64,000 nt of DNA, taken from sequence record OP870143.1. The stretch is one strand, 5' to 3'. The notes below the pieces were generated by a model. The model ran no database searches and had not been told where the DNA came from. It saw only the letters and a program-made list of their open reading frames with translations. This document shows positions 25,438-27,016 of the stretch, one piece after another; the stretch's first letter is position 1, and the number at the start of each line of letters is the position of its first letter. The translations under genes were made by a program, and so were the position numbers. This DNA comes from Escherichia phage vB_Eco_F22.

Positions 25438-25865
25438 TATCGTGAAGGGTTCTGTCAGAATCCTTTGAGATAGGAACTCCTATCATAACCTTTCTTAACT
25501 TAATCTTTGCCGTATGGCACTGACGCTAGGGGTGGCCCCCCATCCGTCAGACAGACTATTTTAAGAATGGGTTATCTCAGAAAATGTAAAGCAACATTCG
25601 GGTTAATCAATGGCCTCTCCTATAGAGGCCATTTCTGAATCTTAGGCTATATCCCAAAGGTTAATATCTTTGGGATAAGGCTTCAGATCCCTTATCAAAC
25701 TAACCGCTCAATGTTGAGCATTTTAATCACATAAGCCCCTATATGGGCTGGGTTAAATGTCGGATAGCATAGCTACCTACAGCATCGAATTGTTAGGTCT
25801 TACATGCAATATAGGGTATAAAGGGAGGACTCGTCCCCTCCCTCCTATTATGACATCCTATCAAT

Positions 25866-25929
25866 GAGTACACTTCAAGTGGTAGGCCTGCCGCTCTTGA
25901 AATTCATCTGCAAAGCTGGAAGTGTACTC
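25866..25929. repeat. 11-bp perfect inverted repeat separated by 42 nt
   Basis: gagtacacttc (25866-25876) and its exact reverse complement gaagtgtactc (25919-25929). Confidence 0.8.
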
Positions 25930-26109
25930 TTTGATAGTTTTCGTAAGCGATTATGCGGTTTTTTAGAAACGAACCAATAACATAAATGCAAACGATGATG
26001 TTGTTCTGATGGCAGCCTAATAAGCCAAGCGTCAGTCAGGAGTGAGTCGTCCTGATTATCAAACGACCGTGGAGTACTCCCGTCCATGTATTAGAAACGG
26101 GGGACCAAT

Positions 26110-26476
26110 TACCAGTTGCACGAGATGGCTTGACATGTTCAAGTTTGGACTAAGTGTGACACCGCTAGATTGGAGGGCTGCTGCGGTAAGCTATAGACTC
26201 CAACCGGAGGTTCGAATCCTTCACTGGTAACCAATTCAAAGTAGCACTGCATAGAACGCGAAAAGGTACAGCGACGTTAGCCATACGGTATTGTGAGGTT
26301 CGAGTCCTCACCTATGAGCAGTGACGACTGCAACAGTGCTACTCTGAATTGGAAGAATTAAGACGGGTCTGGTGAAGTAGATGGGGTTCGATTCCCCCAG
26401 GTGGAGTAATCCACTAGCGTGCTTGGTGCACGAATAAGACTTAATACTGGTGGTTCGATTCCATCCCCCGTTACCC
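26110..26476 (+). ncRNA. cluster of tRNA-like structured elements (T-arm-like hairpins; canonical cloverleaves not confirmed)
   Basis: Four T-arm-like hairpins with GGTTCGA(A/T/G)T loops at 26206-26222, 26294-26310, 26382-26398 and 26449-26465; acceptor-like long-range stems (taccagt/actggta, gtagcactg/cagtgctac, gacggg/cccgtt) enclose ~100-125 nt units rather than ~76 nt. Confidence 0.3.
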
Positions 26477-26667
26477 AAAGTCGCCAGGTACTTATGGCAA
26501 ATGGGTAGTAACGAACTAGTCATTCGTCAAACGCCCACCTAATTACGAGTCAGCAAGAACGCCTTCATTTAAACTTAAACAAAAAAGCTTAACGCAATAA
26601 TTATGTAGGGGTATGTAAGGATTGCGAAGAAGGAGCCAGTTAGAGCCTGGCATGACTCACCCATTAT

Positions 26668-26743
26668 GTCCACTTAGCTTAGACTGGGAAAGCAACCGAC
26701 TAATAATCGGAAGGTCACTGGTTCAAATCCAGTAGTGGACACC
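26668..26743 (+). tRNA. tRNA (cloverleaf folds by hand; anticodon reading uncertain)
   Basis: Acceptor gtccact/agtggac 7/7 bp, D-stem gctt/aagc, T-arm actgg-ttcaaat-ccagt, discriminator A then CC; anticodon stem has 4 of 5 pairs and the loop ctaataa gives an unusual AAT anticodon. Confidence 0.5.
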
Positions 26744-26977
26744 TATTCAGCAGTAACATAGTCCTGATTGCATAGCACTCTAAAGACAACACTGGTAAGA
26801 CAGTCCAGTGGCTGCTAATGTATTGTTATTCCCCTCGACGGGAATTTCGCTAGTGAAGGTAACACTTAAAAATCCAAAGCTACGTCTTACTACTATCGGG
26901 CTATCAACCCACGGTCGCTTAACCCTATAGCGGTAGTAGTTTGACGGCCTGCCTCGTTGACTGCGTTAAAGTCACTA

Positions 26978-27016
26978 AGTCCCTCGGAGCCGTCACTCTG
27001 GGGGACTTTTTTATTT
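26978..27016 (+). terminator. Rho-independent terminator closing the RNA island
   Basis: Stem agtccc...gggact followed by ttttttat. Confidence 0.5.

Follow-up and report, generated by a model that had tools for sequence, protein, structure and literature searches.

What does a phage encode in a stretch where hairpins shaped like the T-arm of transfer RNA (tRNA) recur at short distances and no tRNA is predicted? The question is raised by Escherichia phage vB_Eco_F22 (OP870143.1), an N4-like podophage of the G7C group (Gamaleyavirus, Schitoviridae) whose closest DNA matches are Mimir124, PhAPEC5, PhAPEC7 and G7C; the window analysed here is a 64,000-nucleotide (nt) stretch of its DNA. A preliminary description had reported four GGTTCGA-type T-arm hairpins at 26100-26480, two of them followed by an acceptor-like strand and a discriminator A, with matching 5' strands 100-125 nt upstream, and had offered tRNAs with insertions, non-canonical tRNA-like RNAs or decayed tRNA genes as explanations. 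The second of these is the right reading of the interval. We further consider it reasonably probable that 26110-26476 specifies three contiguous tRNA-derived, non-decoding RNAs (here E1, E2 and E3/4) within a polycistronic stable-RNA cluster of this N4-like phage, with a role as mimics or scaffolds.

All four hairpins are present where they had been placed, starting at 26206, 26294, 26382 and 26449:

26206-26222, + strand: T-arm 1, ggaggTTCGAATccttc
26294-26310, + strand: T-arm 2, tgaggTTCGAGTcctca
26382-26398, + strand: T-arm 3, tggggTTCGATTccccc, with 4 base pairs (bp) and a conserved U.C
26449-26465, + strand: T-arm 4, ggtggTTCGATTccatc

Their start-to-start distances are 88, 88 and 67 nt. 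The motif GGTTCRANNCC occurs five times in the 64-kb window (both strands searched), each time on the + strand between 26209 and 26730. Shuffled sequence yields 0.60 +/- 0.67 copies and none of 100 shuffles gave five, so that with five motifs against 0.6 expected the clustering is far above chance. A scan for hairpins with a 4-5 bp stem and a G-TTCRANN-C loop found six on both strands of the 64 kb, five of them on the + strand at 26206-26733. T-arm 1 is followed by ACTGGTA-A-CCA, which has a perfect partner TACCAGT at 26110 (a span of 120 nt, counted to where the 3' strand ends), and T-arm 4 by C-CCCGTT-A-CCC, with a partner GACGGG at 26362 (a span of 111 nt); both the acceptor-like strands with their discriminator A and the long distances to the 5' strands thus agree with what had been reported. 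An ordinary 72-90 nt tRNA, which would have refuted the description, does not turn up here: neither ARAGORN, nor Rfam at the gathering cut-off, nor a lax Rfam search at E<=10 returned a tRNA or transfer-messenger RNA (tmRNA) in 26100-26480.

Three conserved RNA units built on T-arms

The hairpins do not represent four separate elements. They fall into three units, with T-arms 3 and 4 sharing one RNA and T-arm 2 placed on top of a long closed helix, two features overlooked earlier:

26110..26233, + strand: E1, an oversized tRNA-like cloverleaf of 124 nt (fold, homologs, compensatory changes)
26234..26351, + strand: E2, a long helix with a small tRNA-like domain, 118 nt (fold z = -4.4, covariation)
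26362..26476, + strand: E3/4, a five-helix tRNA-like RNA with two T-arms, 115 nt (covariation, shuffles, covariance model)

The homologous regions of at least 25 phages formed the comparison set. Each unit is a conserved structure with covarying helices, and each keeps the portion recognised by tRNA enzymes, an acceptor-type helix stacked on a GTTCRANNC T-arm together with GG loops able to form an elbow. None of the three has an anticodon arm: a 5-bp stem with a 7-nt loop is absent from the folds of E1, E2 and E3/4, which have other structures there, and the unit lengths of 124, 118 and 115 nt compare with 72-95 nt for canonical tRNA. No Rfam family matches any of the units.

The strongest case among the three is E3/4. 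Its 6-bp closing helix (26362-67/26467-72), set off from T-arm 4 by a 1-nt spacer and followed by the tail A-CCC, encloses a mini D-arm (26368-75; 2 bp, loop UGGU), T-arm 3 (26383-97), hairpin A (26400-15, GUAA loop), hairpin B (26418-32, loop UUGGU) and T-arm 4 (26449-65). Two T-arms and two conserved GG loops, in the mini D-arm and in hairpin B, may be read as a tRNA frame with a second 'elbow'. In an alignment of 14 distinct homologs from Gamaleyavirus, Klebsiella N4-like phages and T4-like Straboviridae, RNAalifold returns six helices comprising 28 pairs, half of which (14/28) are changed on both sides; 99.2% of the cells are paired, the observed values are reached in 0 of 500 shuffles, and the covariation score of 0.566 falls to 0.04-0.10 when the partners are slid. 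The unit measures 107-112 nt across homologs, and a covariance model gives its members 105-139 bits and ordinary tRNAs 13-21 bits. One homolog, in the T4-like phage VR25, sits between tRNA-Met and tRNA-Arg. A nested outer helix joining AACGGGG (26096) to CCCCGTT (26466), 377 nt apart, was ruled out: the local GACGGG/CCCGTT pairing covaries, and in T4-like phages the homologs lie between tRNAs and form a local closing helix. The match over this distance is misleading because ACGGGGG (26098-26104) is the 3' strand of a pseudoknot belonging to the module described in the next section. Pattern scans of IMG/VR for E1 and E3/4 added few sequences.

E1 shows the complete tRNA pattern of a 7-bp acceptor stacked on a 5-bp T-arm, a GTTCRANNC loop, N73 and CCA. 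The acceptor helix (26110-26116/26223-26229) is followed by A26230 and by CCA at 26231-26233; U8, A14 and G18G19 stand at their tRNA positions, counted from the 5' end; the D-stem is CACG/UGUG (26119-22/26155-58), with an extra hairpin in the D-loop (26127-26145); and the T-arm (26206-26222) has a standard T-loop. The anticodon-arm position is occupied by an invariant 43-nt 'cargo' (26161-26203) with a UUGGAG/CUCCAA stem, which could form an H-type pseudoknot through ACCGC/GCGGU. As a centroid fold, E1 takes the shape of a four-way cloverleaf. In N4-like phages of E. coli and Klebsiella it has ten distinct homologs, with 97% column identity, a length fixed at 120 nt plus ACCA, and an invariant ACCA. 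Their substitutions are confined to the scaffold helices and are compensated, while the cargo is without change: the acceptor occurs as TACCAGT/ACTGGTA, TATCAGT/ACTGATA or TACTGGT/ACCAGTA, each variant compensated, the T-stem as GGAGG/CCTTC or GGGGG/CCCTC, and one pair of the D-loop hairpin is altered on both sides. The suggestion of tRNAs with insertions holds for E1 in structure only: its D-loop has received a hairpin and its anticodon arm is replaced, and there is neither an anticodon loop nor an intron-like layout.

Two observations from other phages touch on E1. Phage Vi01 (locus L005, 1206-1352) has a 143-nt E1-like unit (TGCGGTG...CACCGCA) that keeps the acceptor, D and T arms and has its anticodon arm replaced; it lies in a region of more than 2.3 kb without annotated genes (L005, 740-3046) around a copy of the module described in the next section, where long helices and T-arm units abound. 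A 62-nt 'mini' tRNA-like gene (TCCGGTG...TCTGGTTCGAGTCCAGA-CGCCGGA-ACCA) with a 7-bp acceptor and ACCA, too short for a D arm plus an anticodon arm, is conserved in N4 and most N4-like phages. Compared with L001 1190-1431 and L129 2864-2929, it is deleted in the window, where the ACCAAT preceding E1 (26104-26109) looks like the deletion joint.

In E2 a 17-bp helix (26234-26249/26334-26350), consisting of 7 bp, a conserved mismatch and further pairs, carries the tRNA-like domain. The domain comprises a 5-bp acceptor-like helix, CAUAG/CUAUG (26250-54/26312-16), without a free end and stacked on a 6-bp T-arm (26293-26311), as well as a D-like arm with a GG loop and a mini hairpin; a side hairpin GCAGU-GACG-ACUGC occupies 26318-26331. 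Compensatory double changes are found in 11 of the 40 pairs. On visual comparison its apical domain looks similar to the 62-nt 'mini' module found in other N4-like phages. A helix of like design lies close by:

25858..25937, + strand: long helix CUAUC.../...GAUAG, covarying in comparison with PhAPEC7 (AAU/UUU to GGA/CCC)

This helix, which adjoins the coding module of the next section on the 5' side, shares with E2 the design of 7 bp, mismatch and extension; its apex lacks a T-arm, while its counterpart in phage TR2 and in loci L065 and L074 bears a T-arm domain. A long-helix consensus of about CAGGUAAGAGCA / UGCUCUUUCCG, with 7 bp, a conserved U.U or A.C mismatch and more pairs, recurs at several loci, with interchangeable apical domains of which some have a T-arm, and borders the coding module on either side, usually on one only (25858-25937 in the window, L002, L003, L004, L035, L065). 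The design could be a processing site (for RNase III, for example) or a P2-like connector.

The conservation of the units stands out against their surroundings. In comparison with Klebsiella N4-like phages only the RNA modules align as DNA and the flanking genes do not; identity is 88-89% over E1 and the adjacent coding module, 72-77% over E3/4 and 86-91% over 26740-26817. Among Gamaleyaviruses, units are gained, lost and swapped precisely at unit borders. ORFs (open reading frames) overlapping the interval match no PHROG family as proteins, and annotators conflict on the strand and position of the short coding sequences (CDSs) in the region, many of which are annotated in Mimir124 and Bas96. 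E1, E2 and E3/4 are neither decayed nor decoding tRNAs, because compensatory changes back all three; the option of decayed tRNA genes also lacks support in that the units, compared between N4-like phages of E. coli and Klebsiella, have changed less than the protein genes beside them.

A tmRNA-like coding module upstream of the units

The preliminary description had also missed a tmRNA-like coding module lying directly upstream of E1:

25937..26103, + strand: tmRNA-like coding module (sub-threshold RF04321 match; 61 distinct cores)
25988-26017, + strand: tag ORF ANDDVVLMAA, 10 codons, followed by TAA TAA (26018-26023), the stop lying within the loop of a hairpin

In the lax Rfam scan RF04321 (tmRNA_permuted) matches 25898-26020 at 38.8 bits, under its gathering score of 47, and beta_tmRNA reaches 13.7 bits against a threshold of 84. 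The RF04321 match rests on AUAAAU-GCA AAC GAU GAU GUU GUU CUG AUG GCA GCC UAA UAA, a context of the resume type in which the tag has GCA as its first codon, no start signal and an end of the form hydrophobic-A-A; in length and double stop it equals the E. coli tag ANDENYALAA. Thirteen tag variants occur among the 61 distinct copies (ANDDLMMVAA in P1), every one with 10 codons and a stop, and the pattern is A-N-[DE]-[DEN]-x-x-[LM]-[AMVI]-[AV]-A. Across the 61 copies a small covarying hairpin carries the stop codon in its loop, as does helix 5 of tmRNA. Two pseudoknots (PK) follow: PK2 (26034-40/26051-57 with 26046-50/26063-67) keeps its pairing through 16 stem variants and PK3 (26068-73/26083-88 with 26077-82/26098-103) through 22. 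Upstream of the tag, a PK1 is proposed from GUUUU/GAAAC and CUUUG/CAAAG, the first stem being invariant.

The module is widespread. Its homologs in phages amount to 369 records, which belong to at least six unrelated enterobacterial groups, including N4-like, P1-like, P22-like (HK620), T1-like and Vi01-like phages as well as SUSP2 and pSal-SNUABM-01 (both about 89 kb), which are presumably FelixO1-like. By blastn it is present in 657 of 5426 complete E. coli genomes (about 12%), chiefly on plasmids; a genome scan for the module detected it in only four species representatives. The blastn matches are to prophages and phage-plasmids only, never to ssrA, and the module was rejected as a homolog of the host gene. 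Rfam does not contain it as a family. In the records inspected it has no annotation of its own, and some of them put a short hypothetical-protein CDS across it. In P1 (L161, 712-1220) it lies in the C1-repressed leader of the ban operon, between a 'dicF-like region' with its terminator-like hairpin and trnA/trnT, where from its position it would be expressed on induction; the detailed P1 record marks only the 'dicF-like region', just upstream of the module. A search of the literature on tag peptides or phage tmRNA-like RNAs of this kind found nothing.

Three ways of completing the module into a tmRNA were tried and given up. A circularly permuted tmRNA gene does not fit, for there is no T-arm or CCA upstream of the tag, and true permuted phage tmRNAs (L011, L021) differ. 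A reading of GAUAGUUUUCG as a tmRNA D-loop with an upstream 5' acceptor strand was dropped because a promoter-like site occupies this spot in T1-like copies, GAUAG is the partner of CUAUC in the long helix, and PK1 can form between GUUUU and the invariant GAAAC. ACCA after PK3, considered as an aminoacylatable end, occurs only where E1 follows directly and is missing in UE-S5a, P1 and HK620.

Proposed role and competing explanations

It is proposed that RNase P and trimming at the 3' end release E1 and E3/4, which then accumulate as mimics of tRNA. RNase P would cut at 26109/26110 and 26361/26362, and the 3' ends would be trimmed or completed to CCA. The tRNA frame may be a scaffold for processing and stability that also mimics a tRNA, with the second elbow as the active part in E3/4 and the 43-nt cargo in E1; E2 may be a closed version, and E2-type domains may be tRNA-like partners of the tag module. 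The cluster would probably act on host translation, ribosome rescue or tRNA-binding factors and not on decoding supply, with tRNA enzymes, the ribosome, SmpB and tRNA-cleaving defence nucleases as candidate targets of mimicry. The translation and rescue machinery is a probable target because related phages fuse an E2-type domain to the tag module.

Several points weigh against this account. The unit ends are predicted from structure alone, and a function as mimic, scaffold or decoy is conjecture. The single-sequence fold of E1 is not more stable than shuffles (z = -0.2), and its cargo and proposed pseudoknot, being invariant, are beyond the reach of covariation. High identity among relatives could partly stem from recent horizontal transfer and not from selection. 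The efficiency of RNase P is not assured, given the 6-bp closing helix and 1-nt spacer of E3/4 and the lack of a free acceptor end in E2. No sigma-70 promoter was detected upstream of the cluster, and that the cluster is one transcription unit is an assumption based on the terminator and on the direction of the genes.

An alternative that we hold to be unlikely, yet the best of those remaining, is that the units are the tRNA-like half of a phage tmRNA system, with E1 or an E2-type domain as the partner of the tag module in a two-piece or rearranged tmRNA that would give stalled ribosomes a phage-specified tag. In its favour are the resume context of the module, its three pseudoknots, its tag of 10 codons with AA or VA at the end and its stop codon within a hairpin loop, and the neighbourhood is suggestive: only 6 nt separate the module from the start of E1 in the window, PhAPEC7, KP8 and Kpn16-P2, and T-arm domains on a long helix are found directly 5' of the module in Salmonella phage TR2 (there E2-homologous), L065 and L074 or 3' of it in L035, L018 and L014. 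Permuted tmRNAs encoded by phages are known (PMC9004378). What tells against such a partnership is that G3:U70 was found in no acceptor-type helix here or beside the tag module in other phages, that ARAGORN finds no tmRNA and RF04321 stays under threshold, and that no tRNA-like domain linked to the module in standard or permuted order was found. In addition, no pairing between E1 and the module was found, the E2-type domains are closed at the acceptor end, and at several tag-module loci the interval from -1200 to +2000 nt around the tag contains no T-arm. In T1-like copies, a promoter-like site recognised by eye immediately upstream would probably start the RNA about 5 nt before PK1.

A related and still more doubtful idea is that the tag module, without an acceptor of its own, is loaded on stalled ribosomes as a trans-translation template and adds a phage-specified 10-residue tag, helped by E2-type or E1 units or by host SmpB and tmRNA, and that it has spread horizontally among N4-, P1-, P22-, T1-, Vi01- and FelixO1-like phages.

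Two further explanations, both very improbable, would make tRNA genes of the units, decayed or functional. According to the first, they are decaying pseudogenes of a shrinking phage tRNA cluster, an idea suggested by the 4-6 canonical tRNAs that N4 and Klebsiella relatives have at the locus against one in the window, by neighbours annotated 'tRNA-OTHER' or 'tRNA-Pseudo' and by a degenerate tRNA-Cys-like gene in relatives. It is contradicted by covariation, since compensatory changes maintain the helices across three phage clades, by the 97% identity of E1 where flanking genes no longer align and by the fixed unit lengths. According to the second, equally remote, they are true decoding tRNAs with insertions or introns missed by the predictors, and E1 does have a full acceptor, D-type and T-type frame with an encoded CCA. 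Against this, the lax Rfam scan gave no tRNA match, the units allow no 7-nt anticodon loop with U33, conservation is highest in the segments that would have to be inserts, group I intron features are absent and 40-90 nt is too short for group I; the gap in bit scores between E3/4 members and ordinary tRNAs points the same way.

The least probable proposal, that the repeats act as DNA (recombination or homing-endonuclease targets, hairpin promoters) or that the region codes for small proteins, can appeal to the T-loop-coding DNA of T4 as a homing-endonuclease target (SegB; PMC2330249), to the HNH endonuclease gene just upstream in G7C, to module shuffling at unit borders and to the many short CDSs of Mimir124 and Bas96, but the G-U pairs, which are specific to one strand, and the compensatory changes show that an RNA fold is under selection, recombination explains mosaicism without excluding RNA function, and the candidate ORFs have neither a PHROG match nor an agreed strand and position.

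The remaining cluster and known systems

Returning to the reading of three tRNA-derived stable RNAs, the units lie in a non-coding gap of about 1.55 kb (about 25440 to about 27015) flanked by + strand genes, with a 3615-amino-acid ORF downstream. Two further features were identified in the gap:

26668..26743, + strand: tRNA-Ile, anticodon AAT (ARAGORN; RF00005 at 65 bits)
26977..27008, + strand: intrinsic terminator ending the non-coding cluster, annotated as a terminator in PhAPEC7 and G7C

The tRNA-Ile is the sole tRNA called in the whole window by ARAGORN and Rfam. AAT is an uncommon anticodon among bacteria, and the records of relatives label the gene tRNA-Ile, tRNA-Xle or tRNA-Val. Directly 3' of it, a conserved non-coding element (26740-26876; 77% identity in N4 itself) has a hairpin CACUGG...CCAGUG enclosed by an AGCAG/CUGCU helix. 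The spacer from E3/4 to tRNA-Ile (26473-26667) is 95-97% identical among Gamaleyaviruses, and a motif within it, UAUGUAGGGGUAUGUAAGG (about 26603), is found again in a T1-like phage locus with the tag module (L003, about 1880-1900). The upstream part of the gap (25440-25845) is dense in perfect hairpins, for example at 25447-25468, 25608-25632, 25646-25680 and 25820-25842, and is kept among Gamaleyaviruses and not in Klebsiella relatives; the hairpins may be promoters, processing sites or other RNAs.

The units are new, unannotated RNA families of a known general kind, the phage tRNA-like stable RNAs. Phage tRNA clusters are usually read as a supply of tRNAs for codon usage or against defences, and the space that predictors miss is left blank or called small hypothetical proteins; here that 'blank' space holds at least three conserved tRNA-derived RNA families and a tmRNA-like coding RNA. 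These RNAs are candidates for phage manipulation of tRNA-binding enzymes, tRNA-targeting defences and ribosome rescue, and adding the families to RNA databases would stop spurious ORF calls. The tag module without a tRNA-like domain is the more surprising neighbour and merits a separate study.

The closest known case is that of the species I and II RNAs of T4 (rnaC, rnaD). These are stable RNAs of 119-139 nt, not tRNAs, whose genes lie within a phage tRNA cluster, and the cluster described here may be the counterpart of that arrangement. To our knowledge no function is established for the T4 RNAs, which are long unexplained and for which the units offer comparative material. Transcription of the T4 cluster gives one precursor, which holds the species I and II RNAs along with eight tRNAs (PMC2330249). 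In rnaC a canonical T-arm, CCGGGTTCGAATCCCGG, is followed by a 7-nt strand, and CGGAACG pairs with CGUUUCG across 91 nt. The units agree with a species I-type RNA in position and architecture (T-arm, closing helix), whereas no sequence homology of E1, E2 or E3/4 to rnaC or rnaD is detectable and the internal architectures differ; 26473-26600 resembles rnaD weakly, the first part of the spacer matching as GGGU.G..AC....AGUC. T4 itself lacks E3/4, whose homologs lie in other T4-like tRNA clusters. The 3' tRNA-like domain of rnaC (L134 1909-2047, minus strand; L133 2353-2443 in VR25) may aid the reading of species I RNA.

With tmRNA the units share a tRNA frame of acceptor and T-arm, without an anticodon arm, that bears other RNA domains, and the adjacent module has a tag ORF and pseudoknots. 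They differ from it in the absence of G3:U70, in the lack of standard or permuted linkage of a tRNA-like domain and in Rfam scores below gathering; moreover, E1 has a full D-type arm and a long arm of its own, unlike the tRNA-like domain of tmRNA. A short tmRNA-like form consisting of the tRNA domain only is found in a mycobacteriophage (PMC11915505).

E2 invites comparison with the YrlA-type Y RNA, in which D- and T-type arms and a closed 'acceptor' make up a tRNA-like domain on a long stem; RNAs of this type are substrates of tRNA enzymes (PMC4201824). In YrlA, encoded beside rsr, the order is T, acceptor-like stem-loop, D, its ends lie at the anticodon position and the RNA has the Ro-binding motif GNCGAAN0-1G (PMC4201824). 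E2 was rejected as a YrlA or Y RNA: it follows the normal tRNA order (acceptor-5', D-like, T, acceptor-3'), is joined through its acceptor end, and on inspection its stem has no GNCGAAN0-1G motif and no Rfam family match.

E1 and the 143-nt unit of Vi01, which keep the acceptor, D and T arms, may be likened to natural tRNA scaffolds whose processing would follow the tRNA route. In the engineered 'tRNA scaffold', a concept used in PMC3753655, the anticodon arm is swapped for an RNA of interest, and E. coli processes and stabilises the foreign RNA.

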